The position numbers were made by a program, and so were the translations under genes. A stretch of DNA of 64,000 bases from assembly GCA_038121105.1 (NCBI GenBank), contig JAYONB010000007.1, positions 119,365 to 183,364 on the forward strand, given 5' to 3'. The notes below the pieces were generated by a model. The model ran no database searches. It saw nothing but the letters and a program-made list of their open reading frames with translations, and was not told the DNA's origin. Positions 7,032 through 22,199 of the stretch are shown in pieces. Source of the stretch: Alphaproteobacteria bacterium (lineage in GTDB: Bacteria; Pseudomonadota; Alphaproteobacteria; SHVP01). Within the stretch, counting starts at the first letter, position 1. Every line of letters begins with the position of its first letter.

Positions 7032-8462
7032 ATGAGCCAGCCTTCGCCCCAAGAACTCTTTTTTACCCGCACCGGCCTCGACGAAAAGCGTGTCGAAGGC
7101 CTCGTCGGCGAGGCCCTGCACGGCATGGATGACGGCGAGATTTTCCTGGAATACCGCCAGTCCGAGAGCTTTTCCTTCGATGACGGGCGGCTCAAAGCCG
7201 CGGCCTACGACACCGACCAAGGTTTCGGCCTACGCGCGGTTTCCGAAGATTCCACCGGCTACGCCCATGCCGCCGAGCTTTCCGAGGACGCCATCAAACG
7301 CGCCGTCTCCACGGTGCAAGCCGTGCGTGGCGGCAATGTGGGCACCGCCGCGGCAGGTCCTGCGCGCACCAACAACACGCTCTATGTCGACGACAATCCG
7401 CTCAACGAGGTGCCGTTCGAAGACAAGATCAAGCTGATGCAAGACATCGACGCCTATGCCCGCGCCAAAGACCCGCGCGTGCGCCAGGTCTCGGCCTCGC
7501 TCGCCGGATCGTGGCAGGTCGTCCACATGATCCGCGCCGACGGCCACCAGGTCGGCGACATCCGCCCCCTGGTCCGTCTCAACGTCTCGGTCGTGGTCGG
7601 CGACGGCGACCGCCAGGAGACCGGCTCGCACGGCACCGGCGGCCGCACCGGTTACCTCGGCTATATCGATCCCGCGGCTTGGCAAGGCCAAGTCGACGAA
7701 GCCTTGCGCCAGGCCCTGGTCAATCTCGAAAGCATCGATGCGCCCGCCGGTGAGATGACGGTCGTACTCGGCCCCGGCTGGCCCGGCATCTTGTTGCACG
7801 AAGCCATCGGCCATGGCCTCGAGGGCGACTTCAATCGCAAAAAAACCTCCGCCTTCGCCGGCTTGATGGGCGAACAGGTCGCCGCCAAGGGCGTCACCGT
7901 CGTCGACGACGGCACGCTCACGGATCGCCGCGGCTCGCTCACCGTCGATGACGAAGGCACGCCGACCAACCGCACGGTCCTGATCGAAGACGGCATTCTC
8001 ACCGGTTACCTGCACGACCGGCTCAACGCGCGGCTGATGAACATGGCGCCCACCGGCAACGGTCGCCGCCAGTCCTACGCGCACATGCCGATGCCACGCA
8101 TGACCAACACCTACATGCTGTCGGGCGATCGCGATCCCGCGGAAATTCTAAGCGGCGTGAAAAACGGTCTCTATGCGGTGAACTTCGGCGGCGGCCAGGT
8201 CGACATCACCTCGGGCAAGTTCGTCTTTTCCTGCACCGAGGCCTACATGGTCGAAGACGGCAAAGTCGCCGCCCCGGTCAAAGGCGCCACCCTGATCGGC
8301 AACGGTCCCGACGTGCTGACCAAGATCAGCGGCATCGGCACCGACATGGGCCTCGATCCGGGCATCGGCACCTGCGGCAAAAACGGCCAAGGTGTTCCCG
8401 TCGGCGTCGGCCTCCCCACCATCCGCGTCGACGGCCTGACGGTCGGCGGCACCGCGGCCTAG
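7032..8462 (+). CDS. tldD: metalloprotease TldD
   Basis: TldD/PmbA family with the HEAIGHGLEGD motif. The start was chosen at MSQPSP (7032) inside the longer track ORF. Confidence 0.9.
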   Translation: MSQPSPQELFFTRTGLDEKRVEGLVGEALHGMDDGEIFLEYRQSESFSFDDGRLKAAAYDTDQGFGLRAVSEDSTGYAHAAELSEDAIKRAVSTVQAVRGGNVGTAAAGPARTNNTLYVDDNPLNEVPFEDKIKLMQDIDAYARAKDPRVRQVSASLAGSWQVVHMIRADGHQVGDIRPLVRLNVSVVVGDGDRQETGSHGTGGRTGYLGYIDPAAWQGQVDEALRQALVNLESIDAPAGEMTVVLGPGWPGILLHEAIGHGLEGDFNRKKTSAFAGLMGEQVAAKGVTVVDDGTLTDRRGSLTVDDEGTPTNRTVLIEDGILTGYLHDRLNARLMNMAPTGNGRRQSYAHMPMPRMTNTYMLSGDRDPAEILSGVKNGLYAVNFGGGQVDITSGKFVFSCTEAYMVEDGKVAAPVKGATLIGNGPDVLTKISGIGTDMGLDPGIGTCGKNGQGVPVGVGLPTIRVDGLTVGGTAA

Positions 8463-9229
8463 ATCACGCGGACCGATGCCCGCGCAGTGTCGCACTCGGC
8501 GCAGCCCTCGGCGGTGGCGTGCAGAAACAACAACGGATCGTCCTTGAGCGCCGCGCACGCCAACCTCACGACATCGCGTGACCGAAACAATCGCGCCGTC
8601 GCACGGCCGACCGTCCCTTCGTGCTGCAATCCCTCGACACGCAACAAATCGTCGGCCAACGCAAACCGCGCGCAGCACGAATCGTTTTCGCCGTAGTCGA
8701 TCCGCGTCGGCACCCCGTCTTCGAGAACCGTGATGTGATGCGGAATGCGATAGGGCACCCCAGCCTTAAGCTCGGCAAGATGTAAACTGGTGTCGGCATC
8801 ATGCCCGACACCGAGCAACAGCACCTGGCCGCCCAGATCGTGTACCCGACCGACCGCGCTCTCAGGGCCGTGCGGCGGCAGGGTCATCGGCACGTCGACG
8901 ATCTCCTTCGCGCGCGGCCCCACCGCCGCCCAGGCAAAGGGATGATCGCCGCGCCGCGCGTCGGGCCGTCGCCACAACGTCTGCGCCACCACACCGAGAT
9001 CGAGGTCGGCGGGCGTGGTGGCCGGGTCGAACACATGATCGTCGTCCCCGGTCCACGACGGCATCACCACCGTGCCGTCCGGTCCGACCGTCATCAACAA
9101 CGCCTCGATCAGCCCCGCCGGTCCGCCGTCCACCGGCCGTACCGCGCGAAACGAGGTGTGCACCTGCACCACCGCGCCGGTCATCACGCCCAACGCACGA
9201 AGTTGATCGGCGATCGCGCTGGGGGTCAT
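8459..9229 (-). CDS. aminoglycoside N(3)-acetyltransferase family protein (AAC(3)-like, Antibiotic_NAT)
   Basis: Collinear similarity to AAC(3)-IV-type enzymes: VHTSFRAVRP, VMPSWTGDDD, FDPATTP, LHLAELKAGVPY, DYGENDSCCARF. Confidence 0.8.
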   Translation of the reverse strand: MTPSAIADQLRALGVMTGAVVQVHTSFRAVRPVDGGPAGLIEALLMTVGPDGTVVMPSWTGDDDHVFDPATTPADLDLGVVAQTLWRRPDARRGDHPFAWAAVGPRAKEIVDVPMTLPPHGPESAVGRVHDLGGQVLLLGVGHDADTSLHLAELKAGVPYRIPHHITVLEDGVPTRIDYGENDSCCARFALADDLLRVEGLQHEGTVGRATARLFRSRDVVRLACAALKDDPLLFLHATAEGCAECDTARASVRVI

Positions 9230-9249: not shown

Positions 9250-9939
9250 CTAGCGCAGCTCGAACGTCACCGCGAGGTCCATCGACAGCGTGGACGTACC
9301 CGCCGCAACCGGCACGCTCGCCAACGCTTCGGACCGGAAGCGCGCCGGTGCGGGCCCGCCGCCACGCCCGGTTTCCGAAATCGTCATGACGCGGCCCAAC
9401 CGGGCCCCGGCCGCTTCCGCCATCATGGCCGCTTTGCGTTGCGCGTCTTTGACCGCGGCAATGCGCAAGCGGTCTTGCACGGCCTCGTCGGGCGCAACGA
9501 AGAACGTCACGCCGTTCAGCGAATTGGCGCCGCCTTTGATCAACGCATCGAGCGTGTCGCCGACGATCGCCGTGTCGCGCACCAGGGCCGTCACGGTGTT
9601 CGTCGCCCGATAGCCGACGATCCGCCGCGCCTGCCCCCGCCCCTCGACCTGATCGAACACCGGCGAGACGTTGAACCCCGAGGTTTGGATATCCGCCTCG
9701 GCCACCCCCGCGGCGCGCAAGGCGGCAAATACGCCGCGCATCGCCGCGCTGTTTTGATCGACCGCCTCGCCGGCGCTCTTGGCTTGGCTCACCACACCGG
9801 CGCTGACGCGCGCGCGGTCCGGCGTCGCGTCGACCTCGGCATGACCGCTCACCGAAATCGTCCGCGCCGGTTCCGCGGCGTGGGCCTCGGCCGATAGCCC
9901 CACCGTCATCGCAACGAACGCAATCAAAAAGGCTCGCAT
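9250..9939 (-). CDS. SIMPL domain (DUF541/BP26-like) periplasmic protein
   Basis: Signal peptide MRAFLIAFVAMTVGLSAEAHA plus the SIMPL fold motif TISVSG. Confidence 0.8.
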   Translation of the reverse strand: MRAFLIAFVAMTVGLSAEAHAAEPARTISVSGHAEVDATPDRARVSAGVVSQAKSAGEAVDQNSAAMRGVFAALRAAGVAEADIQTSGFNVSPVFDQVEGRGQARRIVGYRATNTVTALVRDTAIVGDTLDALIKGGANSLNGVTFFVAPDEAVQDRLRIAAVKDAQRKAAMMAEAAGARLGRVMTISETGRGGGPAPARFRSEALASVPVAAGTSTLSMDLAVTFELR

Positions 9940-10002
9940 GGTTTTACTCCCATTGATGTCGGGCCACGATGCCATGCCCGCACCCTGGTGCGCGACTCTC
10001 GT

Positions 10003-11190
10003 TTAGCGAAACGCTTCCTCGCGCAGTGCCGCGATCACGGCCTCAACAGTCATCGCCTCTTGCACGCCATCGCGGCGGCGCAGTGTGATCTGATCGCCGG
10101 CGGCCTCACGGGCGCCCACCGCGGCCAACAACGGAATGCCGGCGTCGCGCGCATCGACCACCTTGCGCGCCAACCGCTCTGGGCGCACGTCGGGCACCGC
10201 GCGATAGCCCGCCGCCGCCAACCAGTCGACGACGGATTTGGCGTAGGCCACCTGCGCATCCGTGATGCTCGCCACCACGATTTGATCGGGCGCGAGCCAC
10301 AGCGGCAGATTGCCCTCGTGGTGTTCCAGCAACATGCCGATGAACCGCTCGACGCTCCCCAACACCGCATGATGGATCATCACCGGGCGGACCCGACCGC
10401 CCCCGGCATCGACGTAGGCCGCGTCCAGGCGCTCGGGTAGCACCATATCGAGCTGCACCGTCCCGCATTGCCATTCGCGCCCGTGACTGTCGCGTAAGTG
10501 AAAGTCGAGCTTGGGGCCGAAGAACGCGCCCTCGCCCGGATCGACGCGGTAGGCAATTCCGGCGGCTTTGGCCGCGGCCTCGAGCCGCGCCTCGACTGCA
10601 TCCCACGCCGCATCGTCGCCGGCCCGCACCTCGGGCCGCGTCGAAAACGCGACCTGCACATCGTCGAACCCGAAGTCGGCATAGACCTTGTGCAACAGGC
10701 CGCAAAACCGCGCGACCTCGTCCTCGATCTGGTCCTCGGCGCAAAAGATATGCGCATCGTCCTGCACGAAGCTGCGCCCGCGCATCAGGCCCATCAGCGC
10801 CCCGGAGGGTTCGTCGCGATGGTACATACCGAACTCGCTATAGCGGATCGGCAAATCGCTAAACGAACGCACGCGTTTGTTGAACACCTGCACGTGCCCG
10901 GGACAACTCATCGGTTTCAGGGCCCGCGATTGGCCGCCGTCTTCGAACGCAAACATGTTGTCGCCGAACTTTTCCCAATGACCGCTACGCTCCCACAGCT
11001 TTCGGTCCAGCAGCACCGGCGTGCGAATCTCACGAAAGCCGAGCCCGCGCATGCGCGCCCGGATCGTCTCTTCGACGATGCGAAACAGGGCAAAGCCGCG
11101 GGGGTGCCAAAACACCATGCCCGCCGCTTCCTCCTGCTGATGCCAAAGGTCCATGCGGTTGGCGATTGCGCGATGATCGTGGTCGTCCAT
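10003..11190 (-). CDS. threonyl-tRNA synthetase paralog: catalytic core and anticodon-binding domain only, lacking the N-terminal TGS and editing domains
   Basis: The ORF begins exactly at the DHR(K/A)xG catalytic-domain boundary (MDDHDHRAIANRMDLWHQQEEAAGMVFWH...MSCPGHVQVF...GTVQLDMVLPERL...), near-collinear with E. coli ThrRS residues ~240-642. There is no room upstream for N1/N2 domains: 233 bp separate it from the next gene. Confidence 0.8.
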   Translation of the reverse strand: MDDHDHRAIANRMDLWHQQEEAAGMVFWHPRGFALFRIVEETIRARMRGLGFREIRTPVLLDRKLWERSGHWEKFGDNMFAFEDGGQSRALKPMSCPGHVQVFNKRVRSFSDLPIRYSEFGMYHRDEPSGALMGLMRGRSFVQDDAHIFCAEDQIEDEVARFCGLLHKVYADFGFDDVQVAFSTRPEVRAGDDAAWDAVEARLEAAAKAAGIAYRVDPGEGAFFGPKLDFHLRDSHGREWQCGTVQLDMVLPERLDAAYVDAGGGRVRPVMIHHAVLGSVERFIGMLLEHHEGNLPLWLAPDQIVVASITDAQVAYAKSVVDWLAAAGYRAVPDVRPERLARKVVDARDAGIPLLAAVGAREAAGDQITLRRRDGVQEAMTVEAVIAALREEAFR

Positions 11191-11239
11191 GTCGTTTTCT
11201 CCTCATCAAAAAAGCCGGGAGAAGACGGGCACCAGACAC

Positions 11240-11271
11240 AAAAAAGGCCCCGTCCGGATACCGGCGGAGCC
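11240..11271 (-). terminator. candidate attenuator terminator: 11-bp GC stem GGCUCCGCCGG-UAU-CCGGACGGGGCC followed by U6
   Basis: Seen on the minus-strand transcript between the Thr leader ORF and the ThrRS-like start. Alternative pairings with upstream segments are possible. Confidence 0.5.
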
Positions 11272-11294
11272 TGGGGTGGTTATTGATGCTGTAC

Positions 11295-11372
11295 TTAGCG
11301 CACGTCAAAACCCCACGGCCCGCCGCTGCGGGTCGTGGTGGTGGTGTTCAGTGCCTGAAGCATCATCAACAT
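11295..11372 (-). CDS. candidate leader peptide (25 aa) with five consecutive Thr codons
   Basis: ATG at 11372 gives MLMMLQALNTTTTTRSGGPWGFDVR*, with the run ACC ACC ACC ACG ACC. It lies 52 nt downstream of the methyltransferase stop and 105 nt upstream of the ThrRS-like ATG. Confidence 0.5.
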   Translation of the reverse strand: MLMMLQALNTTTTTRSGGPWGFDVR

Positions 11373-11423
11373 GGCGCGGACCCTAAGTCCGGTCGCGAAA
11401 GGGTTCAATGTTCTATTGGTCTG

Positions 11424-12245
11424 CTAGGACAAAAGCGTCCGTTTGACGATGAGCCCCTGCCCCGTGGGGAGCTCCAAAATCCGTTGGCTGCGCGCGGCAA
11501 ACCAGGCCTGGTAGGCATCGAACATGGGCTCGTATTCCGACCGCCCGAAATCGTCCAGCAAGATCACGCCGTTCTCGGGAATGCGATCGTAAAAGAACTC
11601 AAGCGCGGCGATCTCCGCCCCCGCGCAGTTCATATCCAAATGTAGGAACACAACTTTCTCCGGGGCGGTCTCGGTCAAGACGTCCGGTACCGTGCCCGCC
11701 ACGACATGCACGTTAGGCCAAGGCGCAAAGCGCGCCCGCACTTGCGCTTCCAATCCGTCGGCGGAGAACGTCGGCCCCGACAAGCGCATTTCCGTCTCGG
11801 TGGCATAGCGACTGTCCAGTCCTTGGAACGTATCGTAAAGGTAGAAGTCGCGATCCGGCGCGATGGCCGAGCCCAACGTGCCCAGCGCGGTCACCGCATA
11901 AAGCCCTTCGTAAACCCCGCATTCGACCAACGCCCCCTCATGACCCAACGAGGTCGAGATCGCCCAACAATACGTATGCAGCCGCCACAGTTTGTGCAGA
12001 TCTTCGGGTTGTTGGCACGCGTTGCCCGCGACTTCCATGAACGTGCGGTCGCGGGTGAAACCGAGATTGCGTGCAATGGCAATGAGGTTGTCCGCCATAA
12101 AGGTGCGCACACCGTGCTCTCGACACACACGCTGCATGTCGTGCGCGCTTTCGCGGACGCGGCTACGCGCGGTGAGCGGAAGGCCCACCGAATAAAAGCT
12201 CATGGCCTCGTAATCGGGCACCGGGGATTCTGTCATGTGCCGCAC
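11424..12245 (-). CDS. TylF/MycF-like (macrocin O-methyltransferase family) class I SAM-dependent methyltransferase
   Basis: LVECGVYEG and LYDTFQG motifs typical of PF05711-type O-methyltransferases. Confidence 0.65.
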   Translation of the reverse strand: MRHMTESPVPDYEAMSFYSVGLPLTARSRVRESAHDMQRVCREHGVRTFMADNLIAIARNLGFTRDRTFMEVAGNACQQPEDLHKLWRLHTYCWAISTSLGHEGALVECGVYEGLYAVTALGTLGSAIAPDRDFYLYDTFQGLDSRYATETEMRLSGPTFSADGLEAQVRARFAPWPNVHVVAGTVPDVLTETAPEKVVFLHLDMNCAGAEIAALEFFYDRIPENGVILLDDFGRSEYEPMFDAYQAWFAARSQRILELPTGQGLIVKRTLLS

Positions 12246-12278: not shown

Positions 12279-12971
12279 CTAGGACGGCGGGGCCGAGACC
12301 TCGGCGCGCGCCAAATTGTCGAGCAACGTCGGATCGTCCGGAAAGCGCTTCAGCGCCTCGCGGTAGTCCGCCACCGCCGAGGCATAGTCCCCAGTCGCAT
12401 GATGCGCCAAGCCGCGCGCGAGATAGCCGAACCCGTCGCCGTAGCGGATCAAACGGCTCGCCTCCTCGCGCAGTCGGGCATGATCGCCCAGGCGCAATAA
12501 CGCCTCGACGCGGGTCCGCACCGCCAAGTCAGGAACGATGCCTTCGATCACGGGCGTCTCGGCACAGCGCGTCAGGGCCGCACGTTCCAGCGCCACGCGA
12601 CAGATCACCTGAATCTGGCGCAAGGCCTGCGCCGCGATTTCGGTGTTCGCCGGATCGCGTCGCGCGTCGGGCGACCCGGTGGCGTGGGCCACCGTCTCGT
12701 GGCAGGTGTCGATCATCGCAGCGCCGTCTTGGGTTGGGCTGCCTTGGATGCACGCGCTCAGCGAGTCGCGGGCCGCGGCCGCCGGGTCGGAGTCGAACAC
12801 GCCCAACCACCACAGCCCGGCTGCGACGATCAGCACGTCCACCACGATCCCGCCGACGATAAAGTAGGTGAGATAGCGCCGGTTCATGCTGCGCATCTTG
12901 GCCATCGCCGTCTGGAATAAAGACGGTGGGTCGGTCTTGGGATCCTCGGGTTCGCTCACGGGCGGCATCAT
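12279..12971 (-). CDS. membrane-anchored TPR-repeat protein (hypothetical)
   Basis: N-terminal transmembrane helix (YLTYFIVGGIVVDVLIVAAGLWWL) followed by TPR-like helices (DYASAVADYREALKRFPDD). Confidence 0.5.
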   Translation of the reverse strand: MMPPVSEPEDPKTDPPSLFQTAMAKMRSMNRRYLTYFIVGGIVVDVLIVAAGLWWLGVFDSDPAAAARDSLSACIQGSPTQDGAAMIDTCHETVAHATGSPDARRDPANTEIAAQALRQIQVICRVALERAALTRCAETPVIEGIVPDLAVRTRVEALLRLGDHARLREEASRLIRYGDGFGYLARGLAHHATGDYASAVADYREALKRFPDDPTLLDNLARAEVSAPPS

Positions 12972-13001: not shown

Positions 13002-13238
13002 TTAGTTCAGCGGCCAACGCCACCACGGCGTTTGGGACACCGACCTTACCTCGCCGGCGGTCACCCCGATATCGCGCCGCCCGCGGGCATCCAGCAGGCC
13101 CAGCGCGGCTCGGTCGCGACGCGCTTTGACCCAGCGTCGCGCCAACACCGCCAAGACCTTGGTGAGACGCGGCATGGCACCCCGACGGGGCTCAATCCGG
13201 TGGGTTTCGGTAAGGTCGCCCATTGCAATCTCGGCCAT
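13002..13238 (-). CDS. DUF1127 domain small protein
   Basis: C-terminal motif RRDRAALGLLDARGRRDIGVTAGEV matches DUF1127. Divergent from a LysR gene, which is a common arrangement. The start is uncertain (alternatives at 13223 or 13175). Confidence 0.5.
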   Translation of the reverse strand: MAEIAMGDLTETHRIEPRRGAMPRLTKVLAVLARRWVKARRDRAALGLLDARGRRDIGVTAGEVRSVSQTPWWRWPLN

Positions 13239-13392
13239 CGGTCTATCCTTTTGCGCCCGCATTTCTGCGGATTTTCGGGAATCTCGGGCGGTAGGCCCAC
13301 CTGGTTCTTGCGCCTCAAATAAGGGGCAGACCCGCCCATCAATCAAACGAATTGATTTGAAGCCACCAATCAGAATTGCTTATGTCAGGGTC

Positions 13393-14316
13393 ATGCACCG
13401 CAATCTCGATATCGACCTCCTGCGCACTCTCGTGGCCATCGCCGAGACCGGCTCGTTCACCGCGGCGGCCGATCAGATCGGGCGCACCCAATCGGCGATC
13501 TCGATGCAGATGAAGCGATTGGAAGAACAGATCGAGCGCCCGCTTTTTGTCCGCGACGGGCGCACCAGCACGCTCACCCCGGCCGGCCATGACTTGCTCG
13601 ACTACGCGCGCCGGATCTTACGATTGCAGGACGCCGCCCTGTCGTCCCTCCGCGAACCGGAGATGGAGGGCGTGGTCCGCGTCGGCATCCCCGACGATTA
13701 CGTCGGCGTGTTCATGCCGCCGATCCTTGCCCGTTTCGCGCGATCCCATCCGCGCGTCCAAGTCGATCTGCGCTGCGAAACCTCCGACCGGTTGCGCGAT
13801 TCCCTGTTGGCCGGCGAAATCGATTTGGCGGTCGTCACCTGCGGCGCATTGACCGAAGAAAGCCAGCCGCTCAAAAAAGAAGCCGTCGTGTGGGCTGCCC
13901 CGCGCGAGCATCGCGTCGAAGACGAACCCGTTCTGCCGCTCGCCCTGTTCGCGGCCCCGTGTCGGGTGCGCGAATCGACCATCCAAGCGTTCGACAAAAT
14001 GGATCGCGACCATCGCATCGCGTACGTCTCGCCCTCGCTGATGGGATTGTTCGCCGCGGTGAACGCCGGGCTCGCCGTCACCACCATCGGCCGCAGTGCG
14101 CTGACCTCGGGAATGCGTACGCTGACCGAGGAAGACGGCTTTCCGCCGCTGCCCGACATCGTCCTGACGTTGGAGCGTACCCCGCGCGAACGCTCCGCTG
14201 CGGTCGAAGCGCTGGCGACGCACATCATCGAATCGTTTCGCGACGAAGCGAACGTCCCGCGGGTCCCGCCCAACGCGGGCCCGGAATATTGGCAGCGCCC
14301 CAGCGCCGCCGAGTAG
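13393..14316 (+). CDS. LysR family transcriptional regulator
   Basis: N-terminal wHTH (LRTLVAIAETGSFTAAADQIGRTQSAISMQMKRLEE) plus a LysR substrate-binding domain. The ATG at 13393 was chosen inside the longer track ORF. Confidence 0.9.
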   Translation: MHRNLDIDLLRTLVAIAETGSFTAAADQIGRTQSAISMQMKRLEEQIERPLFVRDGRTSTLTPAGHDLLDYARRILRLQDAALSSLREPEMEGVVRVGIPDDYVGVFMPPILARFARSHPRVQVDLRCETSDRLRDSLLAGEIDLAVVTCGALTEESQPLKKEAVVWAAPREHRVEDEPVLPLALFAAPCRVRESTIQAFDKMDRDHRIAYVSPSLMGLFAAVNAGLAVTTIGRSALTSGMRTLTEEDGFPPLPDIVLTLERTPRERSAAVEALATHIIESFRDEANVPRVPPNAGPEYWQRPSAAE

Positions 14317-20877: not shown

Positions 20878-22199
20878 ATGGCCGACACCCACCCCAAAAC
20901 CGACCCCATCGATACCGCCTTTGCGGACGAAGAACTTTACGCCCGCCGTCTATCGTTCCGCGTGCGCGTCGTCCTCGTCGTCGCGGTGTTCTGTTTTTTG
21001 CCGTTCATCGTCACGCCGACAACGCTGCTGCCGTATTTCTATGGGCTCAGCCTGTTGTTTCTGGTCTCGAGCTGGCTGCACTACCGCATCGCCAAGGCCG
21101 GCGATCACAGCGCGGTGTGGTCGTATCTCTTTTCGGCGCTCGATGTCTGCCTGATCGTTTGGATCGTCGTCGTCCCGCCGCCGTTCGTCGAACCCTTCGT
21201 GCCGGTCAGCGCCCAACTGTGGTTCGGCAATCAAACCTACATGTACATCTTCCTCGCCGCGGCGGTGTTCACCTACAGCCCCTGGGTCGTGGTCGGGACC
21301 GGCGTGGTCGGCGCGGCGGCTTGGTGGGTCGGCGTCTTTTGGATTCTCCAGCAACCGGGATCCTATGTGCTGAGCGACACCACGCCGCTCCTCACCATGA
21401 CCCCCGACGAGCGGATCGACTATCTCGCCGATTACCGCCGGGTCGACCTCGGCGTCCATGCCCAAGCCGCCTTTCTCTTTATCGTGGTCTCCGTCGGCTT
21501 GGCCGCCTTCGTCTGGCGCGTCCGCAAGCTCGTGTACGACAGCGCAACCTCGGAACGCGCGCGCGGCAACCTCGCGCGCTTTTTTCGCCCAACATCGTCG
21601 CCGAGCTTTCCAACCACGACGAACCGTTACGCGCCGGACGCCGCCAAGACATCGCCATCATGTTTGCCGACATCGTCGGCTTTACCGAACTAGCCGAGGG
21701 CCGGTCGCCGGACGACGTGCTCAAATTGCTGCGCGACGTCCATGGCATCGCGGCCCGCCAGGTCTTCGCCCACAACGGCACGCTGGACAAATATCTCGGC
21801 GACGGGGTGATGGCGACCTTCGGCACCCCGCGCACCGCCGACGACGATGCCGACCGCGCCCTAGCTTGCGCCAAGGCCATCCTGCAAGACCTCGCTCGGT
21901 TCAACGCCGCACGCGCCGGCCCGCCGGTGCGCCTTGGTATCGGGCTGCATTACGGCGACGTCGTGCTGGGCGACATCGGCAGCAGCGAGCGCCTCGAATA
22001 CACCGTCATCGGCGATACCGTGAACGTCGCCAGCCGCCTCGAACGCCTCACCCGCGAGATCGGCCAAGACCTCGTCGTCAGCGACGCGCTCTACCAGCGC
22101 CTCCATGATCCGTCGCTCGCCGAGGGACTTACCAAGGGCGAACCCCGCCGACTGCGCGGCCGCGAAGAACCCGTCGCCTTCTGGACCCAAACCATATGA
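20878..22199 (+). pseudogene. membrane-anchored class III adenylate/guanylate cyclase, interrupted by a +1/-1 frameshift in a T6 run
   Basis: The six-TM N-terminal ORF (20878-21693) and the CHD cyclase-domain ORF (21117-22199; FADIVGFTELAE...GDGVMATFG) are in different frames. The protein would read ...GNLARFF/SPNIVAEL... across T6 at 21580-21585. Confidence 0.7.

Follow-up and report, generated by a model that had tools for sequence, protein, structure and literature searches.

In Escherichia coli, pheST, which encodes the sole housekeeping phenylalanyl-tRNA synthetase (PheRS), is controlled by the leader-peptide attenuator pheM. The present study describes a comparable arrangement in a 64,000-nucleotide stretch of an alphaproteobacterial contig (GenBank assembly GCA_038121105.1, contig JAYONB010000007.1, positions 119,365 to 183,364; hereafter the window), in which a short open reading frame (ORF) rich in threonine codons and a set of alternative hairpins precede a gene for a truncated threonyl-tRNA synthetase (ThrRS). 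Based on the sequence and on folding models, we consider it very likely that a ribosome-mediated transcription attenuator sensing charged tRNA-Thr controls this thrS-like gene, the product of which lacks the editing domain. Similar to pheM-pheST, an aminoacyl-tRNA synthetase (aaRS) gene would be controlled through its cognate codons. However, the target here is a truncated ThrRS, which is located on plasmids or secondary replicons in some hosts, and the two leader sequences are unrelated.

The closest functional analogue is trpRS1 of Streptomyces coelicolor, which was reportedly described by Vecchione and Sello in 2010 as an auxiliary, indolmycin-resistant tryptophanyl-tRNA synthetase (TrpRS) gene under ribosome-mediated attenuation. 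In both cases, a second, non-housekeeping synthetase would be switched on by low charging. The two systems differ in their amino acid, phylum, and RNA sequence, and antibiotic resistance is known for trpRS1 only. In Bacillus subtilis, thrZ and thrS are said to be under T-box control, as reported by Putzer et al. in 1992. Like thrZ, the gene described herein would be a second ThrRS gene that is usually silent and is turned on by low charged tRNA-Thr through antitermination. However, B. subtilis senses charging by the binding of uncharged tRNA to the T-box RNA, whereas no T-box match was obtained here and the proposed sensor is the translating ribosome. The thrS operator of E. coli mimics the anticodon arm of tRNA-Thr and is bound by ThrRS. 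It is also a cis-acting leader RNA for thrS; however, the hairpin loops in the present family are UAU or GNRA, not anticodon-like (CGU, GGU, or UGU), and a Thr-codon ORF is present in addition.

Results

Leader ORF and alternative hairpins in the window

The features described below lie on the minus strand of the window unless indicated otherwise. The thrS-like ORF (10003..11190) encodes 395 amino acids (aa) and comprises the catalytic and anticodon-binding domains of ThrRS only, as judged from TIGR00418 and Pfam. The Shine-Dalgarno (SD) sequence GAGGAG (11199..11204) is located 8 nt 5' of its ATG at 11190. Further upstream, a leader ORF of 25 codons and a stop codon (11295..11372; ATG at 11372, TAA at 11297-11295) encodes MLMMLQALNTTTTTRSGGPWGFDVR*. 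Five consecutive Thr codons, ACC ACC ACC ACG ACC (11331..11345), constitute its putative regulatory run.

Segment 1, CCACGACCCGC (11328..11338), overlaps the last Thr codons and forms the 5' arm of hairpin 1:2, in which 10/11 positions pair with GCGGGCCGUGG (11323-11313) across the loop AGCG. Segment 2, CGGCGGGCCGUGGGGU (11310..11325), provides the 3' arm of this hairpin and, based on pairing and predicted energies, the 5' strand of an alternative helix, the 2:3 antiterminator. The 3' strand of the antiterminator is segment 3 with its upstream extension, ACCCCA GGCUCCGCCGG (11261..11277), which also supplies the 5' arm of the terminator hairpin 3:4. This hairpin, GGCUCCGCCGG-UAU-CCGGACGGGGCC (11246..11271), consists of a UAU loop on a stem of 11 bp, in which the A at 11253 is bulged, and is followed by UUUUUU (11240..11245), the U6 tract of an intrinsic terminator. 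A preliminary description of this DNA had listed the 25-codon leader ORF with its five Thr codons, the 1:2, 2:3, and 3:4 pairings, the U6 tract, and GAGGAG, all of which were found where it had placed them. The 2:3 pairing also exists as proposed; however, it is longer than first seen, with CGGCGGGCC.UGGGGU (11325-11310) and ACCCCAGGC.CCGCCG (11277-11262) forming 15 bp.

The predicted energies in the window were -21.0 kcal/mol for 1:2, -32.6 kcal/mol for the 2:3 region, and -19.2 kcal/mol for 3:4. The intergenic RNA of 233 nt folded at -91.5 kcal/mol (z = -3.7; 0/200 shuffles folded as well), and its minimum-energy structure holds the 1:2 hairpin, with segment 1 paired, and the 3:4 hairpin.

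We propose the following mechanism. Transcription would start at a dedicated promoter (-35 box at 11408-11403), at or beside the leader AUG at 11372, and the leaderless mRNA would be translated. When Thr-tRNA is plentiful, the ribosome would pass the five Thr codons and move over segment 2, or would be released and 1:2 would re-form; segment 3 would then pair with segment 4, and RNA polymerase would terminate at U6 (11245-11240). When Thr-tRNA is scarce, the ribosome would stall at the first Thr codons and cover segment 1, leaving segment 2 free. Segments 2 and 3 would then form the 15-bp antiterminator, the terminator would be blocked, and transcription would enter thrS. In the read-through RNA, the freed segment 4 could pair with a further segment 5 and thereby loosen an SD-masking hairpin in many relatives, but not clearly in the window. 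The support for this mechanism consists of conservation and thermodynamics, namely, sequence features, their conservation and specificity, and predicted energetics, from which we infer the transcription start, stalling, termination, Thr dependence, and physiological role.

Conservation upstream of truncated thrS genes

Twenty-two distinct truncated-thrS loci with upstream DNA were compared, including the window. The others originated from a genome scan (one locus; L061), a metagenome scan (five loci; L085-L087, L089, and L091), exact-protein look-ups (12 loci; L081, L083, L084, L165-L169, L171, L174, L177, and L178), and annotated plasmid or secondary-replicon records (three loci; L180, L181, and L183). 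The protein-pattern scans were dominated by full-length thrS: truncated genes accounted for 1/80 on genome contigs and 6/80 on metagenome contigs, with upstream DNA being available for 5/6 of the latter. The pattern PLWLAP[DE]Q fails to separate the truncated family because it is common to full-length ThrRS.

A leader ORF with a Thr run and the same hairpins were present 100-210 nt upstream of thrS, on the same strand, in 22/22 loci. The ThrRS proteins of these loci are 60-98% identical to that of the window, and the neighboring genes are unrelated. The preliminary description had set the loss of the leader ORF or its Thr run from homologous loci as a ground for rejecting the attenuator; the module was kept throughout. 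Since the same arrangement recurs upstream of each orthologous gene examined, the module goes beyond chance, and the attenuator reading is supported.

The homologous leader ORFs have 24-32 codons and contain 5-9 Thr codons each in all 22 loci (MSKRIATTQATTTTTRIGGPQGFGMR, MNFHFLTLTTVTTTTTTSSGGSSGGRAR, and MNARFVTTTTTTTTTANGGLGGGCTS are examples from relatives). Among 20 leaders, Thr accounts for 132/531 codons (25%; ACC 66, ACG 58, ACT 6, and ACA 2), and the third positions of these codons vary synonymously. The start codon is ATG in 19/20 and an in-frame GTG in the 20th. It is always in the ACN frame, though the Thr run is preceded by a variable number of codons. The remainder of the peptide is poorly conserved, and RNA complementarity is retained. 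Where an R-x-G-G-P motif appears to be conserved in the peptide, it coincides with the nucleotides of segment 2. Stalling at R-x-G-G-P, through EF-P dependence or the nascent peptide, was considered as the primary signal and dropped because this motif is missing in the L084, L087, L089, L171, L174, L178, L180, L181, and L183 types, in which RNA pairing is kept.

Two further features of the leader were noted. The peptide ends in [V/M/A/L]-Arg-stop (UGCGCUGA or UGCGCUAA; window 11295-11303) in 17 of the 20 leaders first tabulated. The leader stop codon is located in or beside a small hairpin within the antiterminator loop, and this hairpin may serve for loop closure or as a pause site.

The terminator stem is conserved in all loci, with U-rich tails after it elsewhere, some of which are weaker. 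Its arms, GGCCCCGCCGG and CGGACGGGGCC, including the bulged A, are almost invariant (alignment A3, columns 101-129), though the ThrRS identity among these loci is no more than 60-75%. Most loci have a GNRA tetraloop (GCAA, GAAA, or GCGA), whereas the window and L165 have UAU on a longer stem.

A plain hairpin needs no such constancy of its arms, which is consistent with a different reading, in which a protein or small ligand recognizes the RNA, through ThrRS autoregulation or in a riboswitch-like manner, and the small ORF is incidental. E. coli ThrRS binds its own mRNA, and the PDB entry 1kog, which we take to be a complex of truncated ThrRS with the operator, contains the truncated enzyme. 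Nevertheless, we regard this reading as very unlikely. An incidental ORF does not fit a start that is always in the ACN frame, 5-9 Thr codons with synonymous variation, or a Thr run that is fixed in position relative to segment 2 across loci. Moreover, the same element is found before asd, and no riboswitch, T-box, or other Rfam match was obtained for it. Two alternative pairing partners for each arm would likewise account for the invariance.

The gene preceding the module changes from locus to locus with few exceptions and, in L178, is divergently oriented. This bears on an alternative explanation. In the preliminary description, one ground for rejection was that the hairpin and U6 tract act only as a constitutive terminator of the upstream methyltransferase gene, which is TylF-like; the explanation further takes the Thr ORF to have arisen by chance in a GC-rich spacer. 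The hairpin is located 153 nt past the methyltransferase stop codon on the same strand, and Thr-run small ORFs do occur by chance: a scan for at least 5 Thr in 7 codons returned 22 other examples in ~1.07 Mb, on both strands. However, the module accompanies thrS after asd, beta-lactamase, MarR, NIPSNAP, EF-hand, and TPR genes and after a divergent Xre/RES pair. It has its own conserved -35 box (TTGAC) and is missing from ~130 full-length thrS loci, upstream of which no Thr-run small ORF was detected. Since the flanking genes vary between loci, the hairpin is not simply the methyltransferase-gene terminator. This explanation is already contradicted by the comparative sequence data and has, in our view, hardly any chance of being correct.

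Specificity of the module

The covariance model R1 was trained on 18 sequences, comprising 17 thrS leaders, with that of the window among them, and the leader of an asd gene. The match in the window (11238..11357), which is part of the training set, scored 101.2 bits (E = 6.5e-24), and the next best match in the window scored 18.6 bits, at the same place on the opposite strand. Scores were 73-117 bits on the training loci and 94.2 (L177), 71.3 (L178), 84.6 (L181), 70.5 (L180), and 88.9 bits (L183) on five held-out loci. Elsewhere in ~1.07 Mb, comprising the rest of the window and ~130 full-length thrS loci, no R1 score exceeded 23 bits, and the best of these was on the opposite strand of a true site.

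Neither the window nor any of 18 related loci contained a match reaching the gathering score of an Rfam family, the Thr leader, riboswitch, and T-box families included. When matches with E up to 10 were admitted for the region 11100-11500, the sole match was a spurious long non-coding RNA. The Rfam/Infernal scan that the preliminary description had suggested as a check thus matched no known leader or T-box.

Two candidates outside truncated-thrS loci were rejected. The Thr-rich small ORF VTMNGKKQNTATTRTTRTRNDRRRA (window 20937-21014, minus strand) was read as a chance occurrence; it is antisense within a plus-strand ORF of 271 aa and is not matched by R1. A partial R1 match of 40 bits on plasmid pBSY19_1 of Bosea sp. 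RAC05 (L182, 2840-3037) comprises a terminator hairpin, GGCCCCUCCGG-AAAC-GGACGGGGCC, and an ORF ending in ...VASGGG*, with neither a Thr run nor thrS. Genes for tRNA-Ala, tRNA-Asn, tRNA-Ile, and tRNA-Met are located ~260 nt downstream and have their own promoter-like site. A reading of this match as a tRNA attenuator was rejected, and it is probably a decayed copy of the module.

A second use of the module and its replicons

On a contig of Azospirillum halopraeferens (L083, 2530-2765; Logan SRR896286_38), a second full copy of the module is located directly upstream of asd. The asd gene encodes aspartate-semialdehyde dehydrogenase of the threonine pathway. Besides a promoter and the leader MKSMFATTTTTTKTTRCGGPSAGVVR, this copy includes a terminator and an SD hairpin; its R1 score was 100 bits. 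Truncated thrS with its own leader follows asd, such that two attenuator modules are arranged in tandem.

A truncated gene with ~60% identity was found in four plasmid or replicon records: Burkholderia sp. M701 pM7012, a 3.5-Mb replicon of Burkholderia arboris, and the 2-Mb replicons of two Caballeronia strains. The leader was present in all three of the records fetched, namely, the conjugative plasmid pM7012 (L180, 402392-403600), B. arboris (L181), and Caballeronia sp. SBC2 pSBC2-1 (L183). The metagenomic loci L087 and L089 are also of the Burkholderiaceae type. Both Alpha- and Betaproteobacteria carry the module, which may reside on a plasmid. This distribution suggests horizontal movement of the leader-thrS cassette, and the copies on conjugative plasmid pM7012 and on secondary replicons argue that truncated thrS is an accessory copy. 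Accessory or defence-type genes, encoding AAA_15/AAA_21 ATPases, Imm27, and an RES-Xre toxin-antitoxin pair, were noted beside the gene in L081 (6256-7386), L166 (4352-5824), and L178 (1593-2680).

Pairing and switching

In an alignment of the 18 sequences, 90.5% of cells were able to pair in the OFF state (1:2 and 3:4) and 93.2% in the ON state (2:3), compared with 25-56% when partner columns were slid. In the terminator helix, the sequence of which is nearly invariant, 98.9% of cells pair. The antiterminator extension paired more stably with its own partners than with those of other loci (-7.57 vs -6.15 kcal/mol; permutation p = 0.003). RNAalifold independently predicted the 1:2 core and the terminator.

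A ribosome was modeled with a footprint that extends 15 nt in the 5' direction and 14 nt in the 3' direction from the first base of the A-site codon. In 17/17 loci, 2:3 was predicted to form when the A site was on an early Thr codon, and to be prevented once it had reached the last one or two Thr codons or a later position. A stalled ribosome lowered the predicted probability of the terminator, P(terminator), in the window from 1.00 to 0.65 when the transcript ended at the terminator. In the full-length RNA with the ribosome on the second Thr codon, it decreased from 1.00 to 0.03, and the predicted fold consisted of 2:3 and a downstream helix, 4:5.

Several observations weigh against the attenuator. 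The sample of 22 loci is small and contains related groups. Covariation is weak, with double changes in 3/20 OFF-state pairs, all of which are in the 1:2 helix, and shuffle controls were not convincingly exceeded. Of the covariation in stems that the preliminary description had proposed to look for, only these three pairs in 1:2 were therefore found, and the terminator and the antiterminator core were almost invariant. The signal is small because the helices are nearly invariant, and the terminator and the antiterminator core thus neither support nor contradict pairing. Equilibrium folding reproduced the switch in 5/17 loci with the terminator-ended transcript and in 7/17 with the full-length RNA, and in 10/17 loci the terminator remained favored at equilibrium despite a stalled ribosome. 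Kinetic, co-transcriptional control must be assumed in these 10 loci. We did not take this failure as a refutation because attenuators act co-transcriptionally. The U-tracts of several relatives are poor (e.g., CCUUGGUC and CCUUCGCU). In the window, a generic promoter and terminator scanner called no terminator at the hairpin, which we think it missed owing to the bulged A, and no leader promoter, the -10 hexamer being weak (7/12 positions against a threshold of 9). The case for the promoter rests on positional conservation because this scanner found neither element.

Promoter and probable leaderless start

The -35 box of the leader's own promoter, TTGAAC (11403..11408), and a -10-like hexamer, TAGGGT (11380..11385), separated by 17 nt from the -35 box and by 7 nt from the leader AUG, were assigned from positional conservation. 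TTGA(C) begins 35-37 nt 5' of the leader ATG in 19/20 leaders, for which the probability by chance is ~1.4% per locus, and the -35 box corresponds to invariant columns in alignment A2. A TAnnnn hexamer is located 6-8 nt ahead of the ATG in most leaders, 17 nt after TTGA(C). With the -10 hexamer this close to the AUG, the leader mRNA is probably leaderless or nearly so, with the transcription start placed from the sequence. In the window, the space between the hexamer and the ATG is too short for an SD sequence. The exception is the thrS leader of L083, which is inside the asd operon, has no promoter, and has a GTG start preceded by GAGG; this exception supports the leaderless reading. Leaderless leader peptides have been documented in Actinobacteria (PMC8079986; bioRxiv 10.1101/834739).

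Downstream helices and the SD sequence

A C-rich segment between the U-tract and the thrS start is complementary to the 3' arm of the terminator (helix 4:5) and to the SD sequence (helix 5:6). In the window, folding assigned segment 5, GGUGCCCGUCU (11223..11233), which is predicted to form 4:5 when segment 2 holds segment 3, and hairpin 5:6 (11194..11226), in which the anti-SD sequence GUCUUCUCCCG (11226-11216) pairs with UG.GGAGAA..AC (11205-11194) and covers GGAG (11202-11199).

These helices open the possibility that control is mainly translational, with 3:4 being a poor terminator and a relay of 2:3, 4:5, and the opening of 5:6 exposing the SD sequence of thrS during ribosome stalling at the Thr codons, as in the translational attenuation of erm or cat. 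The SD sequence is paired in the OFF fold in 13/17 loci and becomes partly free (0.2-0.5) in 12/17 once segment 3 is sequestered. Relative to dinucleotide shuffles of the spacer in 20 loci, the complementarity was stronger for both 4:5 and 5:6 (mean z -1.8 and -1.7, respectively; p < 0.05 in 10/20 each), and the two helices share overlapping nucleotides in 18/20. With a ribosome on a Thr codon, the SD sequence opens to 0.6-0.75 in L081 and L167, and the weak U-tracts of several loci are also in line with this view. In contrast, the window has a clean U6 after its hairpin, and most loci have a GC-rich stem followed by U-rich sequence. Moreover, the probability of an unpaired SD sequence, P(SD unpaired), exceeds 0.3 in only 4/17 loci and is 0.00 in the window, where the SD sequence remains paired in the ON fold. 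Mainly translational control is thus improbable in our judgment; however, it is compatible with attenuation, and both levels may operate together.

Returning to transcription attenuation as the preferred reading, the 4:5/5:6 chain may couple the switch to the masking of the thrS SD sequence. This is a model at the level of the family and is weak in the window, where 4:5 (11255-11246 with 11233-11223) forms but is not significant (z = -0.4). We tentatively put forward, as a possible though doubtful extension, a three-stage relay in which 1:2, 3:4, and 5:6 would form in the OFF state and 2:3 and 4:5 in the ON state, with the SD sequence freed. A stalled ribosome would then both block termination and license the translation of thrS, leaky transcripts would remain silent, and the module as a whole would travel between Alpha- and Betaproteobacteria as a portable cassette for Thr starvation. 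The frozen terminator arms, including the bulged A, would be accounted for because each arm would have two partners. If this relay is true, an editing-less ThrRS would be deployed under stress and might raise Ser-for-Thr mistranslation.

The truncated ThrRS and its neighborhood

The 395-aa ORF matched TIGR00418 with 442 bits (cut-off 383.65) over model positions 170-564 of 565 only, and contains PF00587 (tRNA-synt_2b) and PF03129 (HGTP_anticodon). The N1 (TGS) and N2 (editing) domains are absent, and an in-frame stop codon lies upstream. The absence of the N-terminal domain, as proposed in the preliminary description, is therefore borne out. The best PDB matches of the protein are ThrRS entries; the alignment with engineered E. 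coli delta-N ThrRS (1evk and others) runs from one end to the other, and in full-length ThrRS the matching region is residues 250-639. The truncated family keeps the motifs KPMSCPGH, QDDAHIFC, and HHAVLGS, which presumably hold the zinc ligands in E. coli ThrRS. From its sequence, the protein looks like a working ThrRS devoid of the TGS and editing domains.

Among the 120 best database clusters, which are 64-98% identical to the window protein, most have a length of 385-425 aa and a few are shorter; the 118 family members used in the alignment are all 385-425 aa. Named members are from Azospirillum halopraeferens, Azospirillum sp. A39, Ferrovibrio, Kiloniellales, and Minwuiales. Full-length proteobacterial ThrRS is only 47-57% identical to the window ThrRS. 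The 64-kb window contains no full-length thrS, and no separate gene for an editing or N-terminal domain was found beside the truncated gene in any locus. In analogy to thrZ of B. subtilis and trpRS1 of S. coelicolor, the truncated enzyme is most likely a back-up ThrRS, the gene of which would be switched on when cells starve for threonine or when the main ThrRS is inhibited. Since its editing domain is absent, mischarging with serine may occur, except where the full-length enzyme takes over editing in trans.

In the window, truncated thrS is flanked on the same strand by genes for a TylF-like O-methyltransferase (11424-12245) and a TPR protein (12279-12971) on one side and a SIMPL/DUF541 protein (9250-9975) and an AAC(3)-IV-like aminoglycoside N-acetyltransferase (8459-9229; its 398 bits fall slightly short of the NCBIfam cut-off, 420) on the other. 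This gene arrangement is common only to the close relative L165. An ORF for a LysR-type regulator of 396 aa is located on the plus strand (13126-14316). Its listed TTG start is probably too far upstream because the HTH domain begins only at residue 97.

Discussion

The present results add a conserved regulatory RNA family without an Rfam entry in Alpha- and Betaproteobacteria, in which amino-acid-sensing leaders are sparsely documented. Its target is unusual in being a natural counterpart of the laboratory delta-N ThrRS. If the model is true, a proofreading-deficient synthetase would be switched on exactly when threonine charging fails, which would bear on back-up synthetases, tolerance to natural products that target ThrRS, and regulated mistranslation. 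The covariance model R1 could be used to map the whole regulon, of which asd is already one further target.

The combination of catalytic and anticodon-binding domains with the lack of a working cis-editing domain is common to the present enzyme, T2 of Anabaena (PMC4787780), E. coli delta-N ThrRS (1evk and 1evl), and crenarchaeal ThrRS-cat. T2 is a stress-induced second copy that is responsive to zinc limitation and has retained an editing domain in degenerate form, and trans editing has been described for T1/T2 (PMC4787780).

Regarding the leader, the gammaproteobacterial systems thrL (of thrABC), hisL, pheL, trpL, ilvL, and leuL have in common with the present module an ORF with regulatory codons, mutually exclusive 1:2, 2:3, and 3:4 pairings, and an intrinsic terminator. 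They differ in that their targets are biosynthetic operons, whereas the target here is a tRNA synthetase, except for the asd copy in L083. In comparison with these systems, the present module has no match in Rfam, including the enterobacterial Thr leader, an apparently leaderless ORF, and an extra 4:5/5:6 chain leading to the SD sequence. Polycysteine leaderless ORF attenuators of mycobacteria, as outlined in a preprint (bioRxiv 10.1101/834739), are similar in being leaderless upstream ORFs rich in a single amino acid, and differ in phylum and amino acid.

Leaderless leader ORFs have also been proposed from RNA-seq data in Streptomyces lividans, as thrL-thrS, alaL-alaS, leuL2-leuS, and trpL2-trpS (PMC8079986). 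The statement in the preliminary description that no leader-peptide attenuator is known for thrS needs to be corrected accordingly. Similar to the present leader, S. lividans thrL is a leaderless short ORF before thrS and a proposed Thr-dependent attenuator (PMC8079986). However, it has two Thr codons, no clear terminator, and an annotated thrS as its target, whereas the present module has 5-9 Thr codons and a strong terminator and recurs in 22 loci.

All of the defining features of an attenuator that may be tested in silico were found, and membership of a catalogued RNA family was not. The principle is not new: the leader-peptide control of aaRS genes has precedents in pheST, trpRS1, and the S. 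lividans proposals, including the weak thrL-thrS. A conserved, specific RNA family, a truncated ThrRS as the target, and a second use before asd are new in comparison with these systems, and the leaderless start and SD relay are possibly also new.

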